64,000 nt of DNA, from the NCBI GenBank assembly GCA_051362555.1, contig CM120640.1:32073967-32137966 (forward strand), read 5' to 3'. This document shows, in pieces, positions 1 to 53,570 of the stretch; positions within the stretch are counted from its first letter, which is position 1, and every line of letters begins with the position of its first letter. The notes under the pieces are model-generated. The model made no database searches. It saw only the letters and a program-made list of their open reading frames with translations, and was not told the origin of the DNA. The position numbers and the translations under genes are program-made. This DNA comes from Lingula anatina. Lineage: Eukaryota; Animalia; Brachiopoda.

Positions 1-132
1 CTCTACCCAGACACAGACTTCACACGTCGATAGAAGTTAAGGTTAGTAAACTTTTTATTTGGGGGAGGGGGGGGGGAGGATACGGGAGAGGTAAATTAAA
101 AAGATCTAACCTCATTCCTGTTTCTTTTACAG

Positions 133-212
133 GACATAGAAGATGATGTATGCATAGAAGACGATGAGCGACTCTACCCAGACACAGACTTCACACATCG
201 ATAGAAGTTAAG
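133..212 (+). other. Representative type A exon-like unit (80 nt)
   Basis: Preceded by TTTCTTTTACAG (ends 132) and followed by AAG|GTTAGT (213). Contains an imperfect 18-nt tandem duplication, GACATAGAAGATGATGWA / TGCATAGAAGACGATGAG. Frame 1 reads DIEDD(E/V)CIEDDERLYPD(T/I)DFTHR*. Confidence 0.75.
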
Positions 213-303
213 GTTAGTAAACTTTTTATTTGGGGGAGGGGGGGGGGAGGATGGGGGAGAGGTAAATTAAAAAGTTCTAACCTCATTCCTATTTCTTTTA
301 CAG
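213..303 (+). other. Representative type A GT-AG intron-like unit (91 nt here; length varies with the G run)
   Basis: GTTAGT donor at 213, G-tract at 232-262, CTAAC branch motif at 277-281 (branch A ~23 nt before the acceptor), pyrimidine tract CTCATTCCTATTTCTTTT, and CAG at 301-303. Confidence 0.8.
232..262 (+). other. G-quadruplex-capable tract G5-A-G(6-14)-AGGAT-G5-AGAGG, present in each type A intron
   Basis: Read directly. It provides four runs of at least 3 G when the long central run is split. It is always on the + strand. Confidence 0.7.
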
Positions 304-472
304 GACATAGAAGATGATGAATGCATAGAAGACGATGAGCGACTCTACCCTGACATAGACTTCACACATCGATAGAAGTTAAGGTTAGTAAACTTTTTAT
401 TTGGGGGAGGGGGGGAGGATGGCGGGAGAGGTAAATTAAAAAGATCTAACCTCATTCCTGTTTTTTTTACAG

Positions 473-551
473 GACATAGAAGATGATGAATGCCTACCAG
501 CCTACCAGCCTACCATCAAGCATTGACTACTCTTTGGATCAAGAATTTAAG
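473..551 (+). other. Representative type B exon-like unit (79 nt) with internal (GCCTACCA)x3 octamer repeat
   Basis: TACAG| at 472 and AAG|GTTAGT at 552. It shares its first 21 nt with exon A, then continues CTACCAGCCTACCAGCCTACCATCAAGCATTGACTACTCTTTGGATCAAGAATTTAAG. I counted 68 copies by eye. Confidence 0.75.
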
Positions 552-679
552 GTTAGTAAATTTCATTTTTTGGAGGGGATAGGTAAATTGAATTAAAATC
601 TAATCTAGTTTTATTTCCTTTACAGAACACAGAAGACGATGAAAGACTCTACCCAGACATAGACTTCACACATCGATAG
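483..679 (+). CDS. Candidate spliced 40-aa small ORF join(483..551,626..679) MMNAYQPTSLPSSIDYSLDQEFKNTEDDERLYPDIDFTHR*, repeated in most B-C dimers
   Basis: ATG in AAGATGA context, 23 codons to the exon B donor (phase 0), then 17 codons plus TAG in exon C. It exists only after splicing. I recognise no homolog, and many copy variants are non-synonymous. Confidence 0.2.
552..625 (+). other. Representative type B GT-AG intron-like unit (74 nt), a diverged paralog of intron A
   Basis: GTTAGTAAATTTCATTTTTTGGAGGGGATAGGTAAATTGAATTAAAATCTAATCTAGTTTTATTTCCTTTACAG. The donor, CTAAT branch motif, pyrimidine tract and TACAG are kept, while the interior is diverged and the G-tract reduced. Confidence 0.8.
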
Positions 680-687
680 ACGTTAAG
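626..687 (+). other. Representative type C exon-like unit (62 nt); always follows intron B
   Basis: AACACAGAAGACGATGAAAGACTCTACCCAGACATAGACTTCACACATCGATAGA(A/C)GTTAAG, which equals exon A minus the 18-nt duplication. Frame 1 reads NTEDDERLYPDIDFTHR*. Confidence 0.75.
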
Positions 688-3600
688 GTTAGTAAACTTT
701 TTATTTGGGGGAGGGGGGGGGAGGATGGGGGAGAAGTAAATTAAAAAGATCTAACCTCATTCCTATTACTTTTACAGGACATAGAAGATGATGAATGCAT
801 AGAAGACGATGAGCGACTCTACCCAGACATAGACTTCACACATCGATAGAAGTTAAGGTTAGTAAACTTTTTATTTGGGGGAGGGGGGGGGGGAGGATGG
901 GGGAGAAGTAAATTTAAAAGATCTAACCTCATTCCTATTACTTTTACAGGACATAGAAGATGATGAATGCATAGAAGACGATGAGCGACTCTACCCAGAC
1001 ACAGACTTCACACATCGATAGAAGTTAAGGTTAGTAAACTTATTATTTGGGGGAGGGGGGGGGGGAGGATCGGGGAGAGGTAAATTAAAAAGATCTAACC
1101 TGATTCCTGTTTCTTTTACAGGACATAGAAGATGATGTATGCATAAAAGACGATGAGCGACTCTACCCAGACACAGACTTCACACATCGATAGAAGTTAT
1201 GGTTAGTAAACTTTTTATTTGGGGGAGGGGGGGGGAGGATGGGGGAGAGGTAAATTAAAAAGATCTAACCTCATTCCTATTTCTTTTACAGGACATAGAA
1301 GATGATGAATGCATAGAAGACGATGAGCGACTCTACCCTGACATAGACTTCACACATCGATAGAAGTTAAGGTTAGTTAACTTTTTATTTGGGGGAGGGG
1401 GGGGGGGTAGGATGGCGGGAGAGGTAAATTAAAAAGATCTAACCTCATTCCTATTTCTTTTACAGGACATAGAAGATGATGAATGCCTACCAGCCTACCA
1501 GCCTACCATCAAGCATTGACTACTCTTTGGATCATGAATTTAAGGTTAGTAAATTTCATTTTTTTGGAGGGGATAGGTAAATTGAATAAAAATCTAATCT
1601 AGTTTTATTTCTTTTTACAGAACATAGAAGACTATGAGCGACTCTACCCTGACATAGAATTCACACATCGATAGAAGTTAAGGTTGGTAAACTTATTATT
1701 TGGGGAAGGGGGTCATGTGGGGAGAGGTAAATTAAAAAGATCTAACCTCATTCCTATTTATTTTACAGGACATAGAAGATGATGAATGCATAGAAGACGA
1801 TGAGCGACTCTACCCAGACACAGACTTCACACATCGATAGAAGTTAAGGTAAGTAAACTTTTTATTTGGGGGAGGGGGGGGGGGAGGATGGGGGAGAGGT
1901 AAATTAAAAAGATCTAACCTCATTCCTATTTCTTTTACAGGACATAGAAGATGATGAATGCCTACCAGCCTACCAGCCTACCATCAAGCATTGACTACTC
2001 TTTGGATCAAGAATTTAAGGTTAGTAAATTTCATTTTTTGGAGGGGATAGGTAAATTGAATTAAAATCTAATCTAGTTTTATTTCCTTTACAGAACACAG
2101 AAGACGATGAAAGACTCTACCCAGACACAGACTTCACACATCGATAGAAGTTAAGGTTAGTAAACTTATTATTTGGGGGAGGGGGGGATGTGGGGAGAGG
2201 TAAATTAAAAAGTTCTAACCTCATTCCTATTTCTTTTACAGGACATAGAAGATTATGAATGCCTACCAGCCTACCAGCCTACCATCAAGCATTGACTACT
2301 CTTTGGATCAAGAATTTAAGGTTAGTAAATTTCATTTTTTGGAGGGGATAGGTAAATTGAATTAAAATCTAATCTAGTTTTATTTCCTTTACAGAACACA
2401 GAAGACGATGAAAGACTCTACCCAGACACAGACTTCACACATCGATAGAAGTTAAGGTTAGTAAACTTTTTATTTGGGGGAGGGAGGGGGGGTAGGATGG
2501 CGGGAGAGGTAAATTAAAAAGATCTAACCTCATTCCTATTTCTTTTACAGGACATAGAAGATGATGAATGCCCACCAGCCTACCAGCCTACCATCAAGCA
2601 TTGACTACTCTTTGGATCAAGAATTTAAGGTTAGTAAATTTCATTTTTTGGAGGGGATAGGTAAATTGAATTAAAATCTAATCTAGTTTTATTTCATTTA
2701 CAGAACACAGAAGACGATGAAAGACTCTACCCAGACATAGACTTCACACATCGATAGAAGTTAAGGTTAGTAAACTTTTTATTTGGGGGAGGGGGGGGAG
2801 GATGGGGGAGAAGTAAATTAAAAAGATCTAACCTCATTCCTATTACTTTTACAGGACATAGAAGATGATGAATGCATAGAAGACGATGAGCGACTCTACC
2901 CAGACATAGACTTCACACATCGATAGAAGTTAAGGTTAGTAAACTTTTTATTTGGGGGAGGGGGGGGGGGGGGGTAGGATGGCGGGAGAGGTAAATTAAA
3001 AAGATCTAACCTAATTCCTATTTCTTTTACAGGACATAGAAGATGATGAATGCCTACCAGCCTACCAGCCTACCATCAAGCATTGACTACTCTTTGGATC
3101 ATGAATTTAAGGTTAGTAAATTTCATTTTTTTGGAGGGGATAGGTAAATTGAATAAAAATCTAATCTAGTTTTATTTCTTTTTACAGAACATAGAAGACT
3201 ATGAGCGACTCTACCCTGACATAGAATTCACACATCGATAGAAGTTAAGGTTGGTAAACTTATTATTTGGGGAAGGGGGTCATGTGGGGAGAGGTAAATT
3301 AAAAAGATCTAACCTCATTCCTATTTATTTTACAGGACATAGAAGATGATGAATGCATAGAAGACGATGAGCGACTCTACCCAGACACAGACCTCACACA
3401 TCGATAGAAGTTAAGGTAAGTAAACTTTTTATTTGGGGGAGGGGGGGGGGGGAGGATGGGGGAGAGGTAAATTAAAAAGATCTAACCTCATTCCTATTTC
3501 TTTTACAGGACATAGAAGATGATGAATGCCTACCAGCCTACCAGCCTACCATCAAGCATTGAGTACTCTTTGGATCAAGAATTTAAGGTTAGTAAATTTC

Positions 3601-6600
3601 ATTTTTTGGAGGGGATAGGTAAATTGAATTAAAATCTAATCTAGTTTTATTTCCTTTACAGAACACAGAAGACGATGAAAGACTCTACCCAGACACAGAC
3701 TTCACACATCGATAGAAGTTAAGGTTAGTAAACTTATTATTTGGGGGAGGGGGGGATGTGGGGAGAGGTAAATTAAAAAGTTCTAACCTCATTCCTATTG
3801 CTTTTACAGGACATAGAAGATGATAAATGCATAGAAGACGATGAGCGACTCTACCCTGACATAGACTTCACACATCGATAGAAGTTAAGGTTAGTAAACT
3901 TTTTATTTGGGGGAGGGGGGGGGAGGATGGCGGGAGAGGTAAATTAAAAAGATCTAACCTCATTCCTATTTCTTTTACAGGACATAGAAGATGATGAATG
4001 CCTACCAGCCTACCAGCCTACCATCAAGCATTGACTACTCTTTGGATCAAGAATTTAAGGTTAGTAAATTTCATTTTTTTGGAGGGGATAGGTAAATTGA
4101 ATAAAAATCTAATCTAGTTTTATTTCTTTTTACAGAACATAGAAGACTATGAGCGACTCTACCCTGACATAGAATTCACACATCGATAGAAGTTAAGGTT
4201 GGTAAACTTATTATTTGGGGAAGGGGGTCATGTGGGGAGAGGTAAATTAAAAAGATCTAACCTCATTCCTATTTATTTTACAGGACATAGAAGATGATGA
4301 ATGCATAGAAGACGATGAGCGACTCTACCCAGACACAGACCTCACACATCGATAGAAGTTAAGGTAAGTAAACTTTTTATTTGGGGGAGGGGGGGGGGGG
4401 GAGGATGGGGTAGAGGTAAATTAAAAAGATCTAACCTCATTCCTATTTCTTTTACAGGACATAGAAGATGATGAATGCCTACCAGCCTACCAGCCTACCA
4501 TCAAGCATTGAGTACTCTTTGGATCAAGAATTTAAGGTTAGTAAATTTCATTTTTTGGAGGGGATAGGTAAATTGAATTAAAATCTAATCTAGTTTTATT
4601 TCCTTTACAGAACACAGAAGACGATGAAAGACTCTACCCAGACACAGACTTCACACATCGATAGAAGTTAAGGTTAGTAAACTTATTATTTGGGGGAGGG
4701 GGGGATGTGGGGAGAGGTAAATTAAAAAGTTCTAACCTCATTCCTATTGCTTTTACAGGACATAGAAGATGATAAATGCATAGAAGACGATGAGCGACTC
4801 TACCCTGACATAGACTTCACACATCGATAGAAGTTAAGGTTAGTAAACTTTTTATTTGGGGGAGGGGGGGGGGAGGATGGCGGGAGAGGTAAATTAAAAA
4901 GATCTAACCTCATTCCTATTTCTTTTACAGGACATAGAAGATGATGAATGCCTACCAGCCTACCAGCCTACCATCAAGCATTGACTACTCTTTGGATCAA
5001 GAATTTAAGGTTAGTAAATTTCATTTTTTGGAGGGGATAGGTAAATTGAATTAAAATCTAATCTAGTTTTATTTCCTTTACAGAACACAGAAGACGATGA
5101 AAGACTCTACCCAGACACAGACTTCACACATCGATAGAAGTTAAGGTTAGTAAACATATTATTTGGGGGAGGGGGGGGGATGTGGGGAGAGGTAAATTAA
5201 AAAGTTCTAACCTCATTCCTATTTCTTTTACAGGACATAGAAGATGATGAATGCATAGAAGACGATGAGCGACTCTACCCAGACACAGACTTCACACATC
5301 GATAGAAGTTAAGGTTAGTAAACTTTTTATTTGGGGGAGGGGGGGGATGGGGGAGAGGTAAATTAAAAAGATCTAACCTCATTCCTGTTTCTTTTACAGG
5401 ACATAGAAGATGATGCATGCATAGAAGACGATGAGCGACTCTACCCAGACACAGACTTCACACGTCGATAGAAGTTAAGGTTAGTAAACTTTTTATTTGG
5501 GGGAGGGGGGGGGAGAATACGGGAGAGGTAAATTAAAAAGATCTAACCTCATTCCTGTTTCTTTTACAGGACATAGAAGATGATGTATGCATAGAAGACG
5601 ATGAGCGACTCTACCCAGACACAGACTTCACACATCGATAGAAGTTAAGGTTAGTAAACTTTTTATTTGGGGGAGGGGGGGGAGGATGGGGGAGAGGTAA
5701 ATTAAAAAGTTCTAACCTCATTCCTATTTCTTTTACAGGACATAGAAGATGATGAATGCATAGAAGACGATGAGCGACTCTACCCAGACACAGACTTCAC
5801 ACATCGATAGAAGTTAAGGTTAGTAAACTTTTTATTTGGGGGAGGGGGGGGGGAGGATATGGGAGAGGTAAATTAAAAAGATCTAACCTCATTCCTATTT
5901 CTTTTACAGGACATAGAAGATGATGAATGCATAGAAGACGATGAGCGACTCTACCCTGACATAGACTTCACACATCGATAGAAGTTAAGGTTAGTAAACT
6001 TTTTATTTGGGGGAGGGGAGGGGGGGTAGGATGGCGGGAGAGGTAAATTAAAAAGATCTAACCTCATTCCTATTTCTTTTACAGGACATAGAAGATGATG
6101 AATGCCCACCAGCCTACCAGCCTACCATCAAGCATTGACTACTCTTTGGATCAAGAATTTAAGGTTAGTAAATTTCATTTTTTGGAGGGGATAGGTAAAT
6201 TGAATTAAAATCTAATCTAGTTTTATTTCATTTACAGAACACAGAAGACGATGAAAGACTCTACCCAGACATAGACTTCACACATCGATAGAAGTTAAGG
6301 TTAGTAAACATATTATTTGGGGGAGGGGGGGGGGATGTGGGGAGAGGTAAATTAAAAAGTTCTAACCTCATTCCTATTTCTTTTACAGGACATAGAAGAT
6401 GATGAATGCATAGAAGACGATGAGCGACTCTACCCAGACACAGACTTCACACATCGATAGAAGTTAAGGTTAGTAAACTTTTTATTTGGGGGAGGGGGGG
6501 GGGATGGGGGAGAGGTAAATTAAAAAGATCTAACCTCATTCCTGTTTCTTTTACAGGACATAGAAGATGATGCATGCATAGAAGACGATGAGCGACTCTA

Positions 6601-9600
6601 CCCAGACACAGACTTCACACGTCGATAGAAGTTAAGGTTAGTAAACTTTTTATTTGGGGGAGGGGGGGGGGAGGATACGGGAGAGGTAAATTAAAAAGAT
6701 CTAACCTCATTCCTGTTTCTTTTACAGGACATAGAAGATGATGTATGCATAGAAGACGATGAGCGACTCTACCCAGACACAGACTTCACACATCGATAGA
6801 AGTTAAGGTTAGTAAACTTTTTATTTGGGGGAGGGGGGGGGAGGATGGGGGAGAGGTAAATTAAAAAGTTCTAACCTCATTCCTATTTCTTTTACAGGAC
6901 ATAGAAGATGATGAATGCATAGAAGACGATGAGCGACTCTACCCTGACATAGACTTCACACATCGATAGAAGTTAAGGTTAGTAAACTTTTTATTTGGGG
7001 GAGGGGGGGAGGATGGCGGGAGAGGTAAATTAAAAAGATCTAACCTCATTCCTGTTTTTTTTACAGGACATAGAAGATGATGAATGCCTACCAGCCTACC
7101 AGCCTACCATCAAGCATTGACTACTCTTTGGATCAAGAATTTAAGGTTAGTAAATTTCATTTTTTGGAGGGGATAGGTAAATTGAATTAAAATCTAATCT
7201 AGTTTTATTTCCTTTACAGAACACAGAAGACGATGAAAGACTCTACCCAGACATAGACTTCACACATCGATAGACGTTAAGGTTAGTAAACTTTTTATTT
7301 GGGGGAGGGGGGGGGAGGATGGGGGAGAAGTAAATTAAAAAGATCTAACCTCATTCCTATTACTTTTACAGGACATAGAAGATGATGAATGCATAGAAGA
7401 CGATGAGCGACTCTACCCAGACATAGACTTCACACATCGATAGAAGTTAAGGTTAGTAAACTTTTTATTTGGGGGAGGGGGGGGGGGAGGATGGGGGAGA
7501 AGTAAATTTAAAAGATCTAACCTCATTCCTATTACTTTTACAGGACATAGAAGATGATGAATGCATAGAAGACGATGAGCGACTCTACCCAGACACAGAC
7601 TTCACACATCGATAGAAGTTAAGGTTAGTAAACTTATTATTTGGGGGAGGGGGGGGGGAGGATCGGGGAGAGGTAAATTAAAAAGATCTAACCTGATTCC
7701 TGTTTCTTTTACAGGACATAGAAGATGATGTATGCATAAAAGACGATGAGCGACTCTACCCAGACACAGACTTCACACATCGATAGAAGTTATGGTTAGT
7801 AAACTTTTTATTTGGGGGAGGGGGGGGGAGGATGGGGGAGAGGTAAATTAAAAAGATCTAACCTCATTCCTATTTCTTTTACAGGACATAGAAGATGATG
7901 AATGCATAGAAGACGATGAGCGACTCTACCCTGACATAGACTTCACACATCGATAGAAGTTAAGGTTAGTTAACTTTTTATTTGGGGGAGGGGGGGGGGT
8001 AGGATGGCGGGAGAGGTAAATTAAAAAGATCTAACCTCATTCCTATTTCTTTTACAGGACATAGAAGATGATGAATGCCTACCAGCCTACCAGCCTACCA
8101 TCAAGCATTGACTACTCTTTGGATCATGAATTTAAGGTTAGTAAATTTCATTTTTTTGGAGGGGATAGGTAAATTGAATAAAAATCTAATCTAGTTTTAT
8201 TTCTTTTTACAGAACATAGAAGACTATGAGCGACTCTACCCTGACATAGAATTCACACATCGATAGAAGTTAAGGTTGGTAAACTTATTATTTGGGGAAG
8301 GGGGTCATGTGGGGAGAGGTAAATTAAAAAGATCTAACCTCATTCCTATTTATTTTACAGGACATAGAAGATGATGAATGCATAGAAGACGATGAGCGAC
8401 TCTACCCAGACACAGACTTCACACATCGATAGAAGTTAAGGTAAGTAAACTTTTTATTTGGGGGAGGGGGGGGGGAGGATGGGGGAGAGGTAAATTAAAA
8501 AGATCTAACCTCATTCCTATTTCTTTTACAGGACATAGAAGATGATGAATGCCTACCAGCCTACCAGCCTACCATCAAGCATTGACTACTCTTTGGATCA
8601 AGAATTTAAGGTTAGTAAATTTCATTTTTTGGAGGGGATAGGTAAATTGAATTAAAATCTAATCTAGTTTTATTTCCTTTACAGAACACAGAAGACGATG
8701 AAAGACTCTACCCAGACACAGACTTCACACATCGATAGAAGTTAAGGTTAGTAAACTTATTATTTGGGGGAGGGGGGGATGTGGGGAGAGGTAAATTAAA
8801 AAGTTCTAACCTCATTCCTATTTCTTTTACAGGACATAGAAGATTATGAATGCCTACCAGCCTACCAGCCTACCATCAAGCATTGACTACTCTTTGGATC
8901 AAGAATTTAAGGTTAGTAAATTTCATTTTTTGGAGGGGATAGGTAAATTGAATTAAAATCTAATCTAGTTTTATTTCCTTTACAGAACACAGAAGACGAT
9001 GAAAGACTCTACCCAGACACAGACTTCACACATCGATAGAAGTTAAGGTTAGTAAACTTTTTATTTGGGGGAGGGAGGGGGGGTAGGATGGCGGGAGAGG
9101 TAAATTAAAAAGATCTAACCTCATTCCTATTTCTTTTACAGGACATAGAAGATGATGAATGCCCACCAGCCTACCAGCCTACCATCAAGCATTGACTACT
9201 CTTTGGATCAAGAATTTAAGGTTAGTAAATTTCATTTTTTGGAGGGGATAGGTAAATTGAATTAAAATCTAATCTAGTTTTATTTCATTTACAGAACACA
9301 GAAGACGATGAAAGACTCTACCCAGACATAGACTTCACACATCGATAGAAGTTAAGGTTAGTAAACTTTTTATTTGGGGGAGGGGGGGGGAGGATGGGGG
9401 AGAAGTAAATTAAAAAGATCTAACCTCATTCCTATTACTTTTACAGGACATAGAAGATGATGAATGCATAGAAGACGATGAGCGACTCTACCCAGACATA
9501 GACTTCACACATCGATAGAAGTTAAGGTTAGTAAACTTTTTATTTGGGGGAGGGGGGGGGGGTAGGATGGCGGGAGAGGTAAATTAAAAAGATCTAACCT

Positions 9601-12600
9601 AATTCCTATTTCTTTTACAGGACATAGAAGATGATGAATGCCTACCAGCCTACCAGCCTACCATCAAGCATTGACTACTCTTTGGATCATGAATTTAAGG
9701 TTAGTAAATTTCATTTTTTTGGAGGGGATAGGTAAATTGAATAAAAATCTAATCTAGTTTTATTTCTTTTTACAGAACATAGAAGACTATGAGCGACTCT
9801 ACCCTGACATAGAATTCACACATCGATAGAAGTTAAGGTTGGTAAACTTATTATTTGGGGAAGGGGGTCATGTGGGGAGAGGTAAATTAAAAAGATCTAA
9901 CCTCATTCCTATTTATTTTACAGGACATAGAAGATGATGAATGCATAGAAGACGATGAGCGACTCTACCCAGACACAGACCTCACACATCGATAGAAGTT
10001 AAGGTAAGTAAACTTTTTATTTGGGGGAGGGGGGGGGGGAGGATGGGGGAGAGGTAAATTAAAAAGATCTAACCTCATTCCTATTTCTTTTACAGGACAT
10101 AGAAGATGATGAATGCCTACCAGCCTACCAGCCTACCATCAAGCATTGAGTACTCTTTGGATCAAGAATTTAAGGTTAGTAAATTTCATTTTTTGGAGGG
10201 GATAGGTAAATTGAATTAAAATCTAATCTAGTTTTATTTCCTTTACAGAACACAGAAGACGATGAAAGACTCTACCCAGACACAGACTTCACACATCGAT
10301 AGAAGTTAAGGTTAGTAAACTTATTATTTGGGGGAGGGGGGGATGTGGGGAGAGGTAAATTAAAAAGTTCTAACCTCATTCCTATTGCTTTTACAGGACA
10401 TAGAAGATGATAAATGCATAGAAGACGATGAGCGACTCTACCCTGACATAGACTTCACACATCGATAGAAGTTAAGGTTAGTAAACTTTTTATTTGGGGG
10501 AGGGGGGGGGAGGATGGCGGGAGAGGTAAATTAAAAAGATCTAACCTCATTCCTATTTCTTTTACAGGACATAGAAGATGATGAATGCCTACCAGCCTAC
10601 CAGCCTACCATCAAGCATTGACTACTCTTTGGATCAAGAATTTAAGGTTAGTAAATTTCATTTTTTGGAGGGGATAGGTAAATTGAATTAAAATCTAATC
10701 TAGTTTTATTTCCTTTACAGAACACAGAAGACGATGAAAGACTCTACCCAGACACAGACTTCACACATCGATAGAAGTTAAGGTTAGTAAACATATTATT
10801 TGGGGGAGGGGGGGGGATGTGGGGAGAGGTAAATTAAAAAGTTCTAACCTCATTCCTATTTCTTTTACAGGACATAGAAGATGATGAATGCATAGAAGAC
10901 GATGAGCGACTCTACCCAGACACAGACTTCACACATCGATAGAAGTTAAGGTTAGTAAACTTTTTATTTGGGGGAGGGGGGGGGGGATGGGGGAGAGGTA
11001 AATTAAAAAGATCTAACCTCATTCCTGTTTCTTTTACAGGACATAGAAGATGATGCATGCATAGAAGACGATGAGCGACTCTACCCAGACACAGACTTCA
11101 CACGTCGATAGAAGTTAAGGTTAGTAAACTTTTTATTTGGGGGAGGGGGGGGGGGAGGATACGGGAGAGGTAAATTAAAAAGATCTAACCTCATTCCTGT
11201 TTCTTTTACAGGACATAGAAGATGATGTATGCATAGAAGACGATGAGCGACTCTACCCAGACACAGACTTCACACATCGATAGAAGTTAAGGTTAGTAAA
11301 CTTATTATTTGGGGGAGGGGGGGGGAGGATGGGGGAGAGGTAAATTAAAAAGTTCTAACCTCATTCCTATTTCTTTTACAGGACATAGAAGATGATGAAT
11401 GCATAGAAGACGATGAGCGACTCTACCCAGACACAGACTTCACACATCGATAGAAGTTAAGGTTAGTAAACTTTTTATTTGGGGGAGGGGGGGGAGGATA
11501 TGGGAGAGGTAAATTAAAAAGATCTAACCTCATTCCTATTTCTTTTACAGGACATAGAAGATGATGAATGCATAGAAGACGATGAGCGACTCTACCCTGA
11601 CATAGACTTCACACATCGATAGAAGTTAAGGTTAGTAAACTTTTTATTTGGGGGAGGGGAGGGGGGGTAGGATGGCGGGAGAGGTAAATTAAAAAGATCT
11701 AACCTCATTCCTATTTCTTTTACAGGACATAGAAGATGATGAATGCCCACCAGCCTACCAGCCTACCATCAAGCATTGACTACTCTTTGGATCAAGAATT
11801 TAAGGTTAGTAAATTTCATTTTTTGGAGGGGATAGGTAAATTGAATTAAAATCTAATCTAGTTTTATTTCATTTACAGAACACAGAAGACGATGAAAGAC
11901 TCTACCCAGACATAGACTTCACACATCGATAGAAGTTAAGGTTAGTAAACTTTTTATTTGGGGGAGGGGGGGGGGAGGATGGGGGAGAAGTAAATTAAAA
12001 AGATCTAACCTCATTCCTATTTCTTTTACAGGACATAGAAGATGATGAATGCATAGAAGACGATGAGCGACTCTACCCAGACACAGACTTCACACATCGA
12101 TAGAAGTTAAGGTTAGTAAACTTTTTATTTAGGGGAGGGGGGGGGAGGATATGGGAGAGGTAAATTAAAAAGATCTAACCTCATTCCTATTTCTTTTACA
12201 GGACATAGAAGATGATGAATGCATAGAAGACGATGAGCGACTCTACCCAGACACAGACTTCACACATCGATAGAAGTTAAGGTTAGTAAACTTTTTATTT
12301 GGGGGAGGGGGGGGGGAGGATGGGGGAGAAGTAAATTAAAAAGACCTAACCTCATTCCTGTTTCTTTTACAGGACATAGAAGATGATGTATGCATAGAAG
12401 ACGATGAGCGACTCTACCCAGACACAGACTTCACACATCGATAGAAGTTAAGGTTAGTAAACTTTTTTATTTGGGGGAGGGGGGGGAGGATGGGGGAGAG
12501 GTAAATTAAAAAGTTCTAACCTCATTCCTATTTCTTTTACAGGACATAGAAGATGATGTATGCATAGAAGACGATGAGCGACTCTACCCAGACACAGACT

Positions 12601-15600
12601 TCACACATCGATAGAAGTTAAGGTTAGTAAACTTTTTATTTGGGGGAGGGGGGGGGAGGATGGGGGAGAAGTAAATTAAAAAGATCTAACCTCATTCCTA
12701 TTACTTTTACATGACATAGAAGATGATGAATGCATAGAAGACGATGAGCGACTCTACCCAGACACAGACTTCACACATCGATAGAAGTTAAGGTTAGTAA
12801 ACTTTTTATTTGGGGGAGGGGGGGGGGGAGGATGGGGGAAAGGTAAATTAAAAAGTTCTAACCTCATTCCTATTTCTTTTACAGGACATAGAAGATGATG
12901 AATGCATAGAAGACGATGAGCGACTCTACCCAGACACAGACTTCACACATCGATAGAAGTTAAGGTTAGTAAACTTTTTATTTGGGGGAGGGGGGGGGGA
13001 GGATGGGGGAGAAGTAAATTAAAAAGACCTAACCTCATTCCTATTACTTTTACAGGACATAGAAGATGATGAATGTATAGAAGACGATGAGCGACTCTAC
13101 CCAGACACAGACTTCATACATCGATAGAAGTTAAGGTTAGTAAACTTTTTATTTGGGGGAGGGGGGGGGGGAGGATATGGGAGAGGTAAATTAAAAAGAT
13201 CTAACCTCATTCCTGTTTCTTTTACAGGACATAGAAGATGATGTATGCATAGAACACGATGAGCGACTCTACCCAGACACAGACTTCACACATCGATAGA
13301 AGTTAAGGTTAGTAAACTTTTTATTTGGGGGAGGGGGGGGGAGGATGGGGGAGAGGTAAATTAAAAAGTTCTAACCTCATTCTTATTTCTTTTACAGGAC
13401 ATAGAAGATGATGAATGCATAGAAGACGATGAGCGACTCTACCCAGACACAGACTTCACACATCGATAGAAGTTAAGGTTAGTGACCTTTTTATTTGGGG
13501 GAGGGGGGGAGGATATGGGAGAGGTAAATTAAAAAGATCTAACCTCATTCCTATTTCTTTTACAGGACATAGAAGATGATGAATGCATAGAAGACGATGA
13601 GCGACTCTACCCTGACATAGACTTCACACATCGATAGAAGTTAAGGTTAGTTAACTTTTTATTTGGGGGAGGGGGGGGGGGGTAGGATGGCGGGAGAGGT
13701 AAATTAAAAAGATCTAACCTCATTCCTATTTCTTTTACAGGACATAGAAGATGATGAATGCCTACCAGCCTACCAGCCTACCATCAAGCATTGACTACTC
13801 TTTGGATCAAGAATTTAAGGTTAGTAAATTTCATTTTTTGGAGGTGATAGGTAAATTGAATTAAAATCTAATCTAGTTTTATTTCCTTTACAGAACACAG
13901 AAGACGATGAAAGACTCTACCCAGACATAGACTTCACACATCGATAGAAGTTGAGGTTAGTAAACTTTTTATTTGGGGGAGGGGGGGGGGGAGGATATGG
14001 GAGAGGTAAATTAAAAAGATCTAACCTCATTCCTATTTCTTTTACAGGACATAGAAGATGATGAATGCATAGAAGACGATGAGCGACTCTACCCAGACAC
14101 AGACTTCACACATCGATAGAAGTTAAGGTTAGTAAACTTTTTATTTGGGGGAGGGGGGGGGGAGGATGGGGGAGAAGTAAATTAAAAAGACCTAACCTCA
14201 TTCCTATTACTTTTACAGGACATAGAAGATGATGAATGTATAGAAGACGATGAGCGACTCTACCCAGACACAGACTTCATACATCGATAGAAGTTAAGGT
14301 TAGTAAACTTTTTATTTGGGGGAGGGGGGGGGAGGATATGGGAGAGGTAAATTAAAAAGATCTAACCTCATTCCTGTTTCTTTTACAGGACATAGAAGAT
14401 GATGTATGCATAGAAGACGATGAGCGACTCTACCCAGACACAGACTTCACACATCGATAGAAGTTAAGGTTAGTAAACTTTTTATTTGGGGGAGGGGGGG
14501 GAGGATATGGGAGAGGTAAATTAAAAAGATCTAACCTCATTCCTATTTCTTTTACAGGACATAGAAGATGATGAATGCATAGAAGACGATGAGCGACTCT
14601 ACCCAGACACAGACTTCACACATCGATAGAAGTTAAGGTTAGTTAACTTTTTATTTGGGGGAGGGGGGGGTAGGATGGCGGGAGAGGTAAATTAAAAAGA
14701 TCTAACCTCATTCCTATTTCTTTTACAGGACATAGAAGATGATGAATGCCTACCAGCCTACCAGCCTACCATCAAGCATTGACTACTCTTTGGATCAAGA
14801 ATTTAAGGTTAGTAAATTTCATTTTTTGGAGGTGATAGGTAAATTGAATTAAAATCTAATCTAGTTTTATTTCCTTTACAGAACACAGAAGACGATGAAA
14901 GACTCTACCCAGACATAGACTTCACACATCGATAGAAGTTAAGGTTAGTAAACTTTTTATTTGGGGGAGGGGGGGGGAGGATGGGGGAGAAGTAAATTAA
15001 AAAGATCTAACCTCATTCCTATTACTTTTACAGGACATAGAAGATGATGAATGCATAGAAGACGATGAGCGACTCTACCCAGACACAGACTTCACACATC
15101 GATAGAAGTTAAGGTTAGTAAACTTATTATTTGGGGGAGGGGGGGGGAAGATGGGGGAGAGGTAAATTAAAAAGATCTAACCTGATTCCTGTTTCTTTTA
15201 CATGACATAGAAGATGATGTATGCATAGAAGACGATGATTGACTCTACCCAGACACAGACTTCACACATCGATAGAAGTTAAGGTTAGTAAACTTTTTAT
15301 TTGGGGGAGGGGGGGGGGAGGATGGGGGAGAAGTAAATTAAAAAGATCTAACCTCATTCCTATTACTTTTACAGGACATAGAAGATGATGAATGCATAGA
15401 AGACGATGAGCGACTCTACCCAGACACAGACTTTACACATCGATAGAAGTTAAGGTTAGTAAACTTATTATTTGGGGGAGGGGGGGTAGGATGGCGGGAG
15501 AGGTAAATTAAAAAGATCTAACCTCATTCCTATTTCTTTTACAGGACATAGAAGATGATGAATGCCTACCAGCCTACCAGCCTACCAGCCTACCATCAAG

Positions 15601-18600
15601 CATTGACTACTCTTTGGATCAAGAATTTAAGGTTAGTAAATTTCATTTTTTGGAGGGGATAGGTAAATTAAATTAAAATCTAATCTAGTTTTATTTCCTT
15701 TACAGAACACAGAAGACGATGAAAGACTCTACCCAGACATAGACTTCACACATCGATAGAAGTTAAGGTTAGTAAACTTTTTATTTGGGGGAGGGGGGGG
15801 GAGGATGGGGGAGAAGTAAATTAAAAAGATCTAACCTCATTCCTATTTCTTTTACAGGACATAGAAGATGATGAATGCATAGAAGACGATGAGCGACCCT
15901 ACCCAGACACAGACTTCACACATCGATAGAAGTTAAGGTTAGTAAACTTTTTATTTGGGGGAGGGGGGGAGGATATGGGAGAGGTAAATTAAAAAGATCT
16001 AACCTCATTCCTATTTCTTTTACAGGACATAGAAGATGATGAATGCATAGAAGACGATGAGCGACTCTACCCTGACATAGACTTCACACATCGATAGAAG
16101 TTAAGGTTAGTTAACTTTTTATTTGGGGGAGGGGGGGGGGGTAGGATGGCGGGAGAGGTAAATTAAAAAGATCTAACCTCATTCCTATTTCTTTTACAGG
16201 ACATAGAAGATGATGAATGCCTACCAGCCTACCAGCCTACCATCAAGCATTGACTACTCTTTGGATCAAGAATTTAAGGTTAGTAAATTTCACTTTTTGG
16301 AGGGGATAGGTAAATTGAATTAAAATCTAATCTAGTTTTATTTCCTTTACAGAACACAGAAGACGATGAAAGACTCTACCCAGACATAGACTTCACACAT
16401 CGATAGAAGTTAAGGTTAGTAAACTTTTTATTTGGGGGAGGGGGGGGGGGAGGATGGGGGAGAAGTAAATTAAAAAGACCTAACCTCATTCCTATTACTT
16501 TTACAGGACATAGAAGATGATGAATGCATAGAAGACGATGAGCGACTCTACCCAGACACAGACTTCACACATCGATAGAAGTTAAGGTTAATAAACTTAT
16601 TATTTGGGGGAGGGGGGGGGGAGGATGGGGGAGAGGTAAATTAAAAAGATCTAACCTGATTCCTGTTTCTTTTACAGGACATAGAAGATGATGTATGCAT
16701 AGAAGACGATGAGCGACTCTACCCAGACATAGACTTCACACATCGATAGAAGTTAAGGTTAGTAAACTTTTTATTTGGGGGAGGGGGGGGAGGATGGGGG
16801 AGAAGTAAATTAAAAAGATCTAACCTCATTCCTATTACTTTTACAGGACATAGAAGATGATGAATGCATAGAAGACGATGAGCGACTCTACCCAGACACA
16901 GACTTCACACATCGATAGAAGTTAAGGTTAGTAAACTTATTATTTGGGGGAGGGGGGGGGGAGGATGGGGGAGAGGTAAATTAAAAAGATCTAACCTGAT
17001 TCCTGTTTCTTTTACAGGACATAGAAGATGATGTATGCATAGAAGACGATGAGCGACTCTACCCAGACACAGACTTCACACATCGATAGAAGTTAAGGTT
17101 AGTAAAATTTTTATTTGGGGGAGGGGGTGGGAGGATGGGGTAGAGGTAAATTAAAAAGTTCTAACCTCATTCCTATTTCTTTTACAGGACATAGAAGATG
17201 ATGAATGCATAGAAGACGATGAGCGACCCTACCCAGACACAGACTTCACACATCGATAGAAGTTAAGGTTAGTAAACTTTTTATTTGGGGGAGGGGGGGA
17301 GGATATGGGAGAGGTAAATTAAAAAGATCTAACCTCATTCCTATTTCTTTTACAGGACATAGAAGATGATGAATGCATAGAAGACGATGAGCGACTCTAC
17401 CCTGACATAGACTTCACACATCGATAGAAGTTAAGGTTAGTTAACTTTTTATTTGGGGGAGGGGGGGGGGTAGGATGGCGGGAGAGGTAAATTAAAAAGA
17501 TCTAACCTCATTCCTATTTCTTTTACAGGACATAGAAGATGATGAATGCCTACCAGCCTACCAGCCTACCATCAAGCATTGACTACTCTTTGGATCAAGA
17601 ATTTAAGGTTAGTAAATTTCATTTTTTGGAGGGGATAGGTAAATTGAATTAAAATCTAATCTAGTTTTATTTCCTTTACAGAACACAGAAGACGATGAAA
17701 GACTCTACCCAGACATAGACTTCACACATCGATAGAAGTTAAGGTTAGTAAACTTTTTATTTGGGGGAGGGGGGGGGGAGGATGGGGGAGAAGTAAATTA
17801 AAAAGATCGAACCTCATTCCTATTACTTTTACAGGACATAGAAGATGATGAATGCATAGAAGACGATGAGCGGCTCTACCCAGACACAGACTTCACACAT
17901 CGATAGAAGTTAAGGTTAGTAAACTTATTATTTGGGGGAGGGAGGGGGAGGATGGGGGAGAGGTAAATTAAAAAGATCTAACCTGATTCCTGTTTCTTTT
18001 ACAGGACATAGAAGATGATGTATGCATAGAAGACGATGAGCGACTCTACCCAGACACAGACTTCACACATCGTTAGAAGTTAAGGTTAGTAAACTTTTTA
18101 TTTGGGGGAGGGGGGGGGGGGGAGGATGGGGGAGAAGTAAATTAAAAAGATCTAACCTCATTCCTATTACTTTTACAGGACATAGAAGATGATGAATGCA
18201 TAGAAGACGATGAGCGACTCTACCCAGACACAGACTTTACACATCGATAGAAGTTAAGGTTAGTAAACTTATTATTTGGGGGAGGGGGGGGGGAGGATGG
18301 GGGAGAGGTAAATTAAAAAGATCTAACCTCATTCCTGTTTCTTTTACAGGACATAGAAGATGATGTATGTATAGAAGACGATGAGCGACTCTACCCAGAC
18401 ACAGACTTCACACATCGATAGAAGTTAAGGTTAGTAAACTTTTTATTTGGGGGAGGGGGGGGGGGAGGATGGGGGAGAGGTAAATTAAAAAGTTCTAACC
18501 TCATTCCTATTTCTTTTACAGGACATAGAAGATGATGAATGCATAGAAGACGATGAGCGACTCTACCCAGACACAGACTTCACACATCGATAGAAGTTAA

Positions 18601-21600
18601 GGTTAGTAAACTTTTTATTTGGGGGAGGGGGGGGGAGGATATGGGAGAGGTAAATTTAAAAGATCTAACCTCATTCCTGTTTCTTTTACAGGACATAGAA
18701 GATGATGAATGCCTACAAGCCTACCAGCCTACCATCAAGCATTGACTACTCTTTGGATCAAGAATTTAAGGTTAGTAAATTTCATTTTTTGGAGGGGATA
18801 GGTAAATTGAATTAAAATCTAATCTAGTTTTATTTCCTTTACAGAACACAGAAGACGATGAAAGACTCTACCCAGACATAGACTTCACACATCGATAGAA
18901 GTTAAGGTTAGTAAACTTTTTATTTGGGGGAGGGGGGGGGGAGGATGGGGGAGAAGTAAATTAAAAAGATCTAACCTCATTCTTATTACTTTTACAGGAC
19001 ATAGAAGATGATGAATGCATAGAAGACGATGAGCGACTCTACCCAGACATAGACTTCACACATCGATAGAAGTTAAGGTTAGTAAACTTATTATTTTGGG
19101 GGAGGGGGGGGGGGGAGGATGGGGGAGAGGTAAATTAAAAAGATCTAACCTGATTCCTGTTTCTTTTACAGGACATAGAAGATGATGTATGCATAGAAGA
19201 CGATGAGCGACTCTACCCAGACACAGACTTCACACATCGATAGAAGTTAAGGTTAGTAAACTTTTTATTTTGGGGGTGGGGGTGGGAGGATGGGGTAGAG
19301 GTAAATTAAAAAGTTCTAACCTTATTCCTATTTCTTTTACAGGACATAGAAGATGATGAATGCATAGAAGACGATGAGCGACTCTACCCTGACATAGACT
19401 TCACACATCGATAGAAGTTAAGGTTAGTTAACTTTTTATTTGGGGGAGGGGGGGGGTAGTATGGCGGGAGAGGTAAATTAAAAAGATCTAACCTCATTCC
19501 TATTTCTTTTACAGGACATAGAAGATGATGAATGCCTACCAGCCTACCAGCCTACCATCAAGCATTGACTACTCTTTGGATCAAGAATTTAAGGTTAGTA
19601 AATTTCATTTTTTGGAGGGGATAGGTAAATTGAATTAAAATCTTATATAGTTTTATTTCCTTTACAGAACACAGAAGACGATGAAAGACTCTACCCAGAC
19701 ATAGACTTCACACATCGATAGAAGTTAAGGTTAGTAAACTTTTTATTTGGGGGAGGGGGGGGGGAGGATGGGGGAGAAGTAAATTAAAAAGATCTAACCT
19801 CATTCCTATTACTTTTACAGGACATAGAAGATGATGAATGCATAGAAGACGATGAGCGACTCTACCCAGACATAGACTTCACACATCGATAGAAGTTAAG
19901 GTTAGTAAACTTTTTATTTGGGGGAGGGGGGGGGAGGATGGGGGAGAAGTAAATTAAAAAGATCTAACCTCATTCCTATTACTTTTACAGGACATAGAAG
20001 ATGATGAATGCATAGAAGACGATGAGCGACTCTACCCAGACACAGACTTCACACATCGATAGAAGTTAAGGTTAGTAAACTTATTATTTGGGGGAGGGGG
20101 GGGGGGAGGATGGGGGAGAGGTAAATTAAAAAGATCTAACCTGATTCCTGTTTCTTTTACAGGACATAGAAGATGATGTATGCATAGAAGACGATGAGCG
20201 ACTCTACCCAGACACAGACTTCACACATCGATAGAAGTTAAGGTTAGTAAAATTTTTATTTGGGGGAGGGGGTGGGAGGATGGGGTAGAGGTAAATTAAA
20301 AAGTTCTAACCTCATTCCTATTTCTTTTACAGGACATAGAAGATGATGAATGCATAGAAGACGATGAGCGACCCTACCCAGACACAGACTTCACACATCG
20401 ATAGAAGTTAAGGTTAGTAAACTTTTTATTTGGGGGAGGGGGGGAGGATATGGGAGAGGTAAATTAAAAAGATCTAACCTCATTCCTATTTCTTTTACAG
20501 GACATAGAAGATGATGAATGCATAGAAGACGATGAGCGACTCTACCCTGACATAGACTTCACACATCGATAGAAGTTAAGGTTAGTTAACTTTTTATTTG
20601 GGGGAGGGGGGGGGGGGTAGGATGGCGGGAGAGGTAAATTAAAAAGATCTAACCTCATTCCTATTTCTTTTACAGGACATAGAAGATGATGAATGCCTAC
20701 CAGCCTACCAGCCTACCATCAAGCATTGACTACTCTTTGGATCAAGAATTTAAGGTTAGTAAATTTCACTTTTTGGAGGGGATAGGTAAATTGAATTAAA
20801 ATCTAATCTAGTTTTATTTCCTTTACAGAACACAGAAGACGATGAAAGACTCTACCCAGACATAGACTTCACACATCGATAGAAGTTAAGGTTAGTAAAC
20901 TTTTTATTTGGGGGAGGGGGGGGGAGGATGGGGGAGAAGTAAATTAAAAAGATCTAACCTCATTCCTATTACTTTTACAGGACATAGAAGATGATGTATG
21001 CATAGAAGACGATGAGCGACTCTACCCAGACACAGACTTCACACATCGTTAGAAGTTAAGGTTAGTAAACTTTTTATTTGGGGGAGGGGGGGAGGATGGG
21101 GGAGAAGTAAATTAAAAAGATCTAACCTCATTCCTATTACTTTTACAGGACATAGAAGACGATGAATGCATAGAAGACGATGAGCGACTCTACCCAGACA
21201 CAGACTTTACACATCGATAGAAGTTAAGGTTAGTAAACTTATTATTTGGGGGAGGGGGGGGGAGGATGGGGGAGAGGTAAATTAAAAAGATCTAACCTCA
21301 TTCCTGTTTCTTTTACAGGACATAGAAGATGATGTATGTATAGAAGACGATGAGCGACTCTACCCAGACACAGACTTCACACATCGATAGAAGTTAAGGT
21401 TAGTAAACGTTTTATTTGGGGGAGGGGGGGGGAGGATGGGGGAGAGGTAAATTAAAAAGTTCTAACCTCATTCCTATTTCTTTTACAGGACATAGAAGAT
21501 GATGAATGCATAGAAGACGATGAGCGACTCTACCCAGACACAGACTTCACACATCGATAGAAGTTAAGGTTAGTAAACTTTTTATTTGGGGGAGGGGGGG

Positions 21601-24600
21601 GAGGATATGGGAGAGGTAAATTAAAAAGATCTAACCTCATTCCTATTTCTTTTACAGGACATAGAAGATGATGTATGCATAGAAGACGATGAGCGACTCT
21701 ACTCTGACATAGACTTCACACATCGATAGAAGTTAAGGTTAGTAAACTTTTTATTTGGGGGAGGGGGGGGGAGGATGGCGGGAGAGGTAAATTTAAAAGA
21801 TCTAACCTCATTCCTGTTTCTTTTACAGGACATAGAAGATGATGAATGCCTACAAGCCTACCAGCCTACCATCAAGCATTGACTACTCTTTGGATCAAGA
21901 ATTTAAGGTTAGTAAATTTCATTTTTTGGAGGGGATAGGTAAATTGAATTAAAATCTAATCTAGTTTTATTTCCTTTACAGAACACAGAAGACGATGAAA
22001 GATTCTACCCAGACATAGACTTCACACATCGATAGAAGTTAAGGTTAGTAAACTTTTTATTTGGGGGAGGGGGGGGGGAGGATGGGGGAGAAGTAAATTA
22101 AAAAGATCTAACCTCATTCTTATTACTTTTACAGGACATAGAAGATGATGAATGCATAGAAGACGATGAGCGACTCTACCCAGACATAGACTTCACACAT
22201 CGATAGAAGTTAAGGTTAGTAAACTTTTTATTTGGGGGAGGGGGGGGGGAGGATGGGGGAGAGGTAAATTAAAAAGATCTAACCTGATTCCTGTTTCTTT
22301 TACAGGACATAGAAGATGATGTATGCATAGAAGACGATGAGCGACTCTACCCAGACACAGACTTCACACATCGATAGAAGTTAAAGTTAGTAAACTTTTT
22401 ATTTGGGGGAGGGGGGGGGGAGGATGGGGGAGAGGTAAATTAAAAAGTTCTAACCTCATTCCTATTTCTTTTACAGGACATAGAAGATGATGAGTGCATA
22501 GAAGACGATGAGCGACTCTACCCTGACACAGACTTCACACATCGATAGAAGTTAAGGTTAGTAAACTTTTTATTTGGGGGAGGGGGGGGGGAGGATATGG
22601 GAGAGGTAAATTAAAAAGATCTAACCTACTTCCTATTTCTTTTACAGGGCATAGAAGATGATGAATGCATAGAAGACGATGAGCGACTCTACCCTGACAT
22701 AGACTTCACACATCGATAGAAGTTAAGGTTAGTAAACTTTTTATTTGGGGGAGGGGGGGGGTAGGATGGGGGAGAGGTAAATTAAAAAGATCTAACCTCA
22801 TTCCTATTACTTTTACAGGACATAGAAGATGATGAATGCATAGAAGACGATGAGCGACTCTACCCAGACACAGACTTCACACATCGATAGAAGTTAAGGT
22901 TAGTAAACTTATTATTTGGGAGAGGGGGGGGGGAGGATGGGGGAGAGGTAAATTAAAAAGATCTAACCTCATTCCTGTTTCTTTTACAGGACATAGAAGA
23001 TGATGTATGCATAGAAGACGATGAGCGACTCTACCCAGACACAGACTTCACACATCGATAGAAGTTAAGGTTAGTAAACTTTTTATTTGCGGGAGGGGGG
23101 GGGGAGGATATGGGAGAGGTAAATTAAAAAGATCTAACCTCATTCCTGTTTCTTTTACAGGACATAGAAGATGATGTATGCATAGAAGACGATGAGCGAC
23201 TCTACCCAGACACAGACTTCACACATCGATAGAAGTTAAGGTTAGTAAACTTTTTATTTGGGGGAGGGGGGGAGGATGGGGGAGAAGTAAATTAAAAAGA
23301 TCTAACCTCATTCCTATTACTTTTACAGGACATAGAAGATGATGTATGCATAGAAGACGATGAGCGACTCTACCCAGACACAGACTTCACACATCGATAG
23401 AAGTTAAGGTTAGTAAACTTTTTATTTGGGGGAGAGGGGGGGGGAGGATGGCGGGAGAGGTAAATTAAAAAGATCTAACCTCATTCCTATTTCTTTTACA
23501 GGACATAGAAGATGATGAATGCCTACCAGCCTACCAGCCTACCATCAAGCATTGACTACTCTTTGGATCAAGAATTTAAGGTTAGTAAATTTCATTTTTT
23601 GGAGGGGATAGGTAAATTGAATTAAAATCTAATCTAGTTTTATTTCCTTTACAGAACACAGAAGACGATGAAAGACTCTACCCAGACATAGACTTCACAC
23701 ATCGATAGAAGTTAAGGTTAGTAAACTTTTTATTTGGGGGAGGGGGGGGGGGAGGATGGGGGAGAAGTAAATTAAAAAGATCTAACCTCATTCCTATTAC
23801 TTTTACAGGACATAGAAGATGATGAATGCATAGAAGACGATGAGCGACTCTACCCAGACACAGACTTCACACATCGATAGAAGTTAAGGTTAGTAAACTT
23901 ATTATTTTGGGGAGGGGGGGGGAGGATGGGGGAGAGGTAAATTAAAAAGATCTAACCTGATTCCTGTTTCTTTTACAGGACATAGAAGATGATGTATGCA
24001 TAGAAGACGATGAGCGACTCTACCCAGACACAGACTTCACACATCGATAGAAGTTAAGGTTAGTAAACTTTTTATTTGGGGGAGGGGGGGGGAGGATGGG
24101 GGAGAAGTAAATTAAAAAGATCTAACCTCATTCCTATTACTTTTACAGGACATAGAAGATGATGAATGCATAGAAGACGATGAGCGACTCTACCCAGACA
24201 CAGACTTTACACATCGATAGAAGTTAAGGTTAGTAAACTTATTATTTGGGGGAGGGGGGGTAGGATGGGGGAGAGGTAAATTAAAAAGATCTAACCTCAT
24301 TCCTGTTTCTTTTACAGGACATAGAAGATGATGTATGCATAGAAGACGATGAGCGACTCTACCCAGACACAGACTTCACACATCGATAGAAGTTAAGGTT
24401 AGTAAACTTTTTATTTGGGGGAGGGGGGGGGAGGATGGGGGAGAGGTAAATTAAAAAGTTCTAACCTTATTCCTATTTCTTTTACAGGACATAGAAGATG
24501 ATGAATGCATAGAAGACGATGAGCGACTCTATCCAGACACAGACTTCACACATCGATAGAAGTTAAGGTTAGTAAACTTTTTATTTGGGGGAGGGGGGGG

Positions 24601-45000: not shown

Positions 45001-45200
45001 GTAAATTAAAAATATCTAACCTGATTCCTGTTTATTTTACAGGACATAGAAGATGATGTATGCATAGAAGACGATGAGCGACTCTACCCAGACACAGACT
45101 TCACACATCGATAGAAGTTAAGGTTAGTAAACTTTTTATTTGGGGGAGGGGGGGAGGATGGGGGAGAGGTAAATTAAAAAGATCTAACCTCATTCTTATT
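39060..45200 (+). repeat. Higher-order tandem duplication, ~3.0-3.14 kb period
   Basis: B exons at ~39116/42093, 40629/43766 and 41617/44755 share rare variants (GGTTGGGGGATAAG, GAAGTTGATG...GTGCGA, TTCAAACATC, GATTGCGACAGGG). Confidence 0.8.
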
Positions 45201-53400: not shown

Positions 53401-53570
53401 GACTTCACACATCGATAGAAGTTAAGGTTAGTAAACTTTTTATTTGGGGAAGGGGGGGGAGGATGGGGGAGAGGTAAATTAAAAAGTTCTAACCTCATTC
53501 CTATTTCTTTTACAGGACATAGAAGATGATGAATGCATAGAAGACGATGAGCGACTCTACCCAGACACAG
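47450..53570 (+). repeat. Higher-order tandem duplication, ~3.13 kb period
   Basis: B exons at ~47794/50921, 48950/52077 and 49937/53063. Shared rare variants GGGAAGAGGGGGGGGTTGGGG, TAAAGAGTTC and GATAGTTAAATTG sit at offset ~3127. Confidence 0.85.

Follow-up and report, generated by a model that had tools for sequence, protein, structure and literature searches.

The window considered here (the whole stretch of DNA that was analysed, 64 kb in length) is occupied by short exon-like units which alternate with intron-like spacers, and the question that it raises is whether such a structure is what remains of a gene for a repeat protein, whether it is still at work as a gene or as a source of RNA, or whether it never encoded a protein at all. 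In the first-pass annotation it had been proposed that the exons descend from a 63-nt phase-0 exon for an acidic repeat of 21 residues, and that a gene with one symmetric exon per repeat was frameshifted and then amplified. The explanation that we favour, with moderate confidence, is that the array is a young, neutrally evolving satellite whose monomers, each an exon plus an intron, derive from a family of spliced repeat-exon genes in which an acidic repeat of 21 residues was once encoded. Coding ancestry as such, taken over all the readings discussed below, we regard as quite probable; it rests on phase-0 exon lengths divisible by three in several diverged paralogs.

Organisation of the array

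A single array (42..64000, plus strand) fills the window and continues past both of its edges. It is composed of 388 exon-like units and 389 spacers in 67 blocks of the order A(n)BC, n being 0 to 10 except in one block, where it is 32. Units of type A outnumber the others (253 of 388). They are 80 nt (251 units) or 78 nt (two units) long, while B units measure 79 nt (62), 71 nt (five) or 87 nt (one) and all 67 C units 62 nt; none of the 388 units in the window is exactly 63 nt. Together with their introns they form monomers of about 170 bp (A), 153 bp (B) and 152 bp (C). Two sites with a 51-nt partial duplication, consisting of an acceptor region and the first bases of the exon, were excluded from the parse into units and spacers; the copies, at 26875-26926 and 28457-28508, are 1,582 bp apart and mark a duplicated block.

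The units diverge from the consensus of their class by 0.9-1.6% on average, and a run of 24 consecutive identical units is repeated 41 units further on, as is another of 18 units after 19. The low divergence and the recurrence of these identical blocks indicate that amplification was recent. With head-to-tail monomers over 64 kb, homogenisation, repeated multi-monomer blocks and no coding capacity, the array has the properties of a satellite. Its mutation spectrum was free of CpG or CpA bias (4/10 CG, 13/36 CA and 15/47 CT sites), and thus gives no hint that methylation or a RIP-like process drives decay. Contig depth summed over the array was 4-8 x 10^5 as against 33-310 for most of the diverged contigs, a contrast which hints at thousands of copies genome-wide, contig depth not being itself a copy number. 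The share of array words varied from 0.00 to 0.60 among DNA runs that bear this species label (X21, X22, X8-X9), which may reflect variation among individuals, strains or sexes, or an effect of assembly. Two DNA runs with the label contained almost no array words and were left out of the alignments described below.

Structure of exons A, B and C

Exon B (79 nt; 473..551, plus strand) can be described as an open phase-0 unit of 63 nt to which two additional copies of an octamer have been added, shifting the frame. The three octamers occupy 492..515 on the plus strand, with starts at 492, 500 and 508; five B units have two copies and one has four. When the octamer is reduced to one copy the exon is 63 nt long, frame 1 is open over 21 residues and frames 2 and 3 are closed, and translation confirmed the peptide that had been reported. 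By itself the open frame is weak evidence, since frame 1 was open in 18% and some frame in 48% of 20,000 shuffled 63-mers of the composition of B. Reads of 63-nt paralogs aligned, with a gap of 8 nt, to a two-octamer variant of B (71 nt; 46027..46097, plus strand). The variant with four (87 nt; 15545..15631, plus strand) is in frame again by chance and provided a natural protein query.

Exon C (62 nt; 626..687, plus strand) corresponds to 63 nt minus one and has an in-frame TAG at codon 18. That it reads in the frame of B and is one nucleotide short was borne out; the position of the lost base cannot be fixed, at least four alignments scoring equally. The reported ending E-V-K in the shifted frame does not apply to the copy at 626-687, which ends D-V-K, and is nevertheless the majority form: 64 of the 67 C units end in GAAGTTAAG, which gives E-V-K, and two in GACGTTAAG. 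Five C units (1621-1682, 3188-3249, 4136-4197, 8213-8274 and 9776-9837) carry A-type alleles; these are either older forms of C or the product of gene conversion between A and C.

The first 21 nt of exon A (80 nt; 304..383, plus strand) are identical to B and the remainder is nearly identical to C. Judged from this alignment, the simplest reading is that A is likely to be a fusion of B and C brought about by deletion. An A variant of 78 nt (53854..53931, plus strand), which has lost 2 nt, is open in frame 1; a second copy of it lies at 59047-59124.

Introns and splice signals

There are two intron types, which are homologous and can be aligned to each other. The long type (86-100 nt; 384..472, plus strand) has a GTTAGT donor, a G-run, a CTAAC branch motif at 446 and a CAG acceptor. 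The short type (73-77 nt; 74 nt at 552..625, plus strand) has the same donor and acceptor and a CTAAT branch motif at 600. All 389 spacers begin with GT (370 with GTTAGT), 384 end with CAG, and 372 combine GT, AG and a branch motif. The AG acceptor has been lost in five introns (three CAT, two ATG), namely 12623-12712, 15114-15203, 55188-55277, 60379-60478 and 63884-63956. A motif of the G-quadruplex type was present in 262 of 321 long introns, in every case on the plus strand; G-runs of differing length account for most of the variation in monomer length and give rise to the positive GC skew across the window.

Changes at splice-critical positions showed no significant deficit (7 alleles where 9.9 were expected; P=0.21, at low power), and the signals persist through the youth of the array, not through measurable selection.

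Coding capacity and tests for selection

Frames 2 and 3 contain stops in all 388 units and frame 1 in 379, leaving nine units open. When all exons were joined (29,730 nt) the longest stop-free run was 64 codons; in the unspliced sequence it was 68 codons on the plus and 105 codons on the minus strand. When the AG and GT/GC sites in the surroundings of one A unit were enumerated, no plausible symmetric open exon emerged that alternative splicing could use. Coding on the minus strand was considered and rejected: the open stretches of up to 105 codons are mirror images of the plus-strand frame, interrupted by the same frameshift, and TACTAAC there is the reverse complement of the donor. An alternative genetic code was likewise rejected, for with TGA in frame 3 and TAG or TAA in frames 1 and 2 all three stops would need reassignment.

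The first-pass annotation had seen many of the differences between B and C as synonymous or conservative, and several, though not all, of the variants in A and C as synonymous in frame 1. No synonymous excess was found. Among array variants, 7 of 40 distinct alleles of A were synonymous in this frame (expected fraction 0.25) and 3 of 12 of C (0.26), and two parts of B gave 1 of 5 and 0 of 6, expectations across classes being about 0.11-0.26. Over codons 1-15, B and C differ at 16 positions, distributed 6/4/6 over the three codon positions. The proposed dN/dS comparison, carried out as pN/pS between B and C, gave 0.55, 0.62 and 0.70 in frames 1-3 and no significant signal in frame 1 (permutation P=0.16; with 16 changes the power is low). 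When C was pooled with the paralogs derived from reads, a hand count found 10-12 synonymous changes among 41 distinct ones as against 17.5-20.5% under neutrality (P=0.04-0.33, again with low power); by codon position the changes fell 16/11/14 (P=0.63), and one further non-synonymous change was spotted after the count. The claimed excess fails at all three levels: among array variants, in the comparison of B with C, and across paralogs.

Relatives in RNA and DNA reads

Five RNA runs, of which 6-26% each was sampled, and three sets of DNA contigs were aligned to two stretches of the window; most carry the same species label, and the tissues of the runs are not stated. One RNA run, X15, yielded 0 reads and is no test. 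Array words were listed in 10 rows of public runs, nine of them with the organism A label, with no RNA run among them. Two short contigs came from X10 (organism B), one with adapter-like ends, and are not evidence of presence in another species.

Altogether 105 RNA reads could be aligned. Only 15 of them were at least 95% and three at least 99% alike to the array, and among DNA contigs 620 of 965 (X2) and 685 of 965 (X1) reached 95%. Since so few RNA reads are nearly identical to the array, the RNA stems mostly from diverged paralogs.

Exons of 63 nt do occur among these paralogs. At the octamer, 18 of 64 reads of RNA run X19 (10 starts) were 8 nt shorter than the two-octamer B, as expected of the 63-nt form with a single octamer, and this form was also present in DNA contigs of X1 and X2 with the same species label; in X1 its summed contig depth was 118.5 of 188,696. 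Further sequences of the single-octamer form came loose from the alignment just past the first octamer (3 reads of X12, 7 of X18 and 20 of X19; 7 contigs of X2 and 5 of X1). By hand reading, frame 1 was open in diverged paralog exons of 63 nt (two, X19), of 60 or 63 nt (one, X12, 7 reads) and of 57 nt (X1 contigs, depth 64). Exon symmetry with an open frame holds for collapsed B and four paralogs derived from reads and fails for the 62-nt C and for two groups of reads with stops, one with a B-like exon ending in TAG (3 X19 reads) and one with an in-frame TAA (3 X13 reads).

Splicing of the relatives is evident from joints between exons. C-like exons were joined to B-like exons with the intron removed in 15 reads of X19 (10 starts) and 5 of X18 (5 starts), and joints between B-like exons were represented by 3, 8 and 21 reads in X19. 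No such intron-removing joints were among those listed for the DNA runs, in which contigs drop rare variants. It follows from the joints in RNA that the introns are real in the low-copy paralogs, and the intron removed there is the counterpart of the long type. The first mate lay on the minus strand in 13 of 13 X12 reads, which in most stranded libraries means RNA of the plus strand; both the joints and the direction of mates indicate this strand only.

One expressed paralog, from X19, has the 62-nt C in common with the array. Its C-like exon, about 21 reads deep, has no indel relative to the 62-nt C and has kept the TAG. Its B-C intron was covered at a depth of 22-31 with no joint across it and is therefore considered to be retained; by hand reading it contains a stop. 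In the paralog this short intron, which aligns with 46098-46171 of the window, has a T-to-G change at 46160 that adds an AG near the branch motif, and this extra AG is a possible cause of the retention. The transcript has the look of a spliced RNA that is non-coding or comes from a pseudogene. An intact parent gene was not seen among reads of the same species label, the expressed paralogs carrying stops.

No array-type splice joint, that from B to C included, was listed in the five RNA runs, where the listing threshold was 3 reads and X15 was empty. An A-type joint occurred in one X13 read, and the three reads at least 99% alike to the array were among 69 of X19. With 0 array-type joints listed and 105 reads from samples of 6-26%, the observations suggest that the array is silent. 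The notion of a direct transition from gene to satellite fits the data, while a transition from gene to lncRNA fits the low-copy paralog better than the array, in which splicing was not seen.

Searches for homologues

Protein queries were natural in-frame stretches of the window of 23-42 residues, in part derived from introns, and blank results are for this reason weak. Pfam matched 0 of three peptides. A word-indexed protein search found nothing at any of its three levels (longer, 0 of 9 candidates; near, 0; alignment, 0 of 4372 candidates), phmmer gave 0 matches against 1.84 billion representatives, and the ESM Atlas returned no usable match. The PDB gave only matches with E values of 1.1-1.7. 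Scanning with the DNA pattern gave 0 matches in viral contigs and 0 in one scan of metagenomes; one bacterial match from the metagenomes and one from the prokaryote genomes were both put down to chance. Three Rfam matches to positions 1-3000 of the window (E 0.59-0.78) were far under the gathering score and at chance level. The array was not described in the literature covered on peptide and DNA motifs, 63-nt exon repeats or exon-intron satellites, a coverage which is incomplete and includes few subscription papers.

Alternative explanations

The open unit of 63 nt might owe nothing to a protein. Its ancestor could have been a spliced non-coding RNA of repeated exons in which both the length and the open frame arose by chance, for a length divisible by three (1/3) and some open frame (48%) are expected together with a probability of about 0.16. 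The absence of a synonymous excess in every test and of a protein homologue agrees with this, as does an expressed paralog that is spliced in spite of stops and a retained intron. Against it, several diverged paralogs were found by hand reading to keep lengths divisible by three together with an open frame 1, the 57-nt form requires a net in-frame loss, and splice boundaries coincide with codon boundaries. Moreover, fast-evolving acidic repeats are often under weak constraint. A never-coding ancestor is in our view rather unlikely, although it deserves some weight. The opposite proposal, that protein is still made from the array by way of frameshifting, a non-standard code or different splice sites, could appeal to the rare variants in which the frame is restored (the 87-nt B and both 78-nt A units) and is hardly credible given stops in frames 2 and 3 of every unit and in frame 1 of 379 of the 388, the lack of a plausible symmetric open exon around one A unit, the three reassignments that would be needed and, once more, no synonymous excess.

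Function may also be sought in the RNA itself. The array could be expressed, in a tissue or stage outside the sampled ones, as a giant spliced non-coding RNA or a precursor of small RNAs whose signals are under selection. All three splice signals are present in 372 of 389 introns and GT in every one, the low-copy relatives give spliced plus-strand transcripts, and there are the three X19 reads nearly identical to the array and the X13 read with the A-type joint. Splice-critical positions, however, are not significantly protected (P=0.21), the 95% level is reached by only 15 of 105 RNA reads as compared with the majority of DNA contigs, and the B-to-C joint of the array type reached the threshold of 3 reads in no RNA run; we consider such a function improbable. 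A piece of exon and intron might instead have been captured or carried by a Helitron- or CACTA-like transposon and then amplified, the parent being a transposon gene or a captured fragment. Many diverged low-copy relatives are found in DNA contigs, and there is a precedent in Aa1500 of Arabidopsis, which resembles part of SAP2 and has a Helitron nearby (bioRxiv 10.64898/2026.09.10.749358). Yet the 64 kb contain no transposon, everything parses as exon and intron save for the two 51-nt partial duplications, and Pfam matched none of the three peptides, which makes this origin very improbable.

Proposed history of the array

On the reading that we favour, a satellite derived from a repeat-exon gene family, an ancestral phase-0 exon of 63 nt would have been duplicated in tandem together with a short intron. 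The joining of 63-nt exons in RNA (X18, X19) supports the one-exon-per-repeat architecture that had been postulated; the coding role of the exon is a probable one, and neither a coding parent with an intact frame nor a homologous protein came to light. C would then have lost 1 nt and gained its in-frame stop. This probably preceded amplification, because the same 62-nt C occurs in the expressed low-copy paralog, and the postulated order of frameshift and amplification is thus likely to be correct. In one B-intron-C pair the octamer may have risen to three copies by slippage, and A could have arisen when a deletion fused the two exons, since A combines the 5' end of B with the body of C. Higher-order blocks would finally have grown from A and BC by unequal crossing-over or gene conversion, and the repeated identical blocks are the visible product.

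A more speculative extension, which we put forward as doubtful, is that we see a newborn satellite of the centromere or pericentromere, formed from single units of exon plus intron when a gene for a repeat protein broke down. The monomer of about 170 bp that arose by fusion of B and C would in that case be outnumbering its parents of 152-153 bp, and RNA directed at the array could come from the transcribed, spliced relatives.

Comparison with known systems

The origin of new satellite monomers is an open question, and most of the cases that have been traced point to transposons. Symmetric exons that were duplicated with their introns and homogenised are familiar from the DAZ repeats, flagelliform spidroin and the exon arrays of mucins. 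The present array resembles these in the duplication of exon and intron together and differs from them in that their frame is open and its own is not. It shares with mammalian lncRNAs derived from lost genes the loss of the frame and the retention of a spliced transcript; the latter are single-copy with a known coding orthologue, whereas here the remnant was amplified into a satellite and no orthologue was found.

Among gene-derived satellites, Aa1500 of Arabidopsis arenosa is centromeric, with a monomer of about 1.5 kb that resembles part of the expressed gene SAP2 (bioRxiv 10.64898/2026.09.10.749358). Both are large tandem arrays of gene-like monomers of which an expressed relative persists. 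Unlike Aa1500, with its monomer of about 1.5 kb, named coding gene and centromeric location, the array described here has a monomer of one exon and one intron, 152-170 bp in size, and three monomer types in higher-order blocks. Three types of exon-intron monomer amplified in tandem into higher-order repeats are also characteristic of NBPF with its Olduvai (DUF1220) domains, which has two-exon monomers of about 1.6 kb in protein-coding genes and 50 canonical triplets in human (PMC9584774). In contrast to these, the monomers here are a tenth of that size, a frameshift affects each of the common types, and no fewer than 388 stand in one run. The expressed paralog, for its part, resembles the lncRNA Firre, a spliced non-coding RNA with exons that are copies of one repeat: the exonic local repeat RRD is found in 7 of 13 exons in human and 11 of 23 in mouse (PMC4820808). 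The repeats of Firre are discontinuous in the locus and their function has been shown, whereas here the introns are homogenised along with the exons in a head-to-tail array. Within an incomplete coverage of the literature we found no paper on a satellite with a monomer of a single exon plus intron and relatives that are still spliced.

What the array adds to these systems is a record at the level of exons, in which splice signals, a shared frameshift, slippage of an octamer and fusion of exons can be placed in a likely order while spliced relatives are still expressed. It bears on how a repeat-exon gene becomes a higher-order satellite and on whether monomers of about 170 bp are favoured. For gene finders, hundreds of near-perfect introns without a protein are a warning. 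The introns even resemble introns whichever strand is read: on the minus strand the donor GTTAGTA becomes TACTAAC (361 copies), and the branch region in turn resembles a donor.
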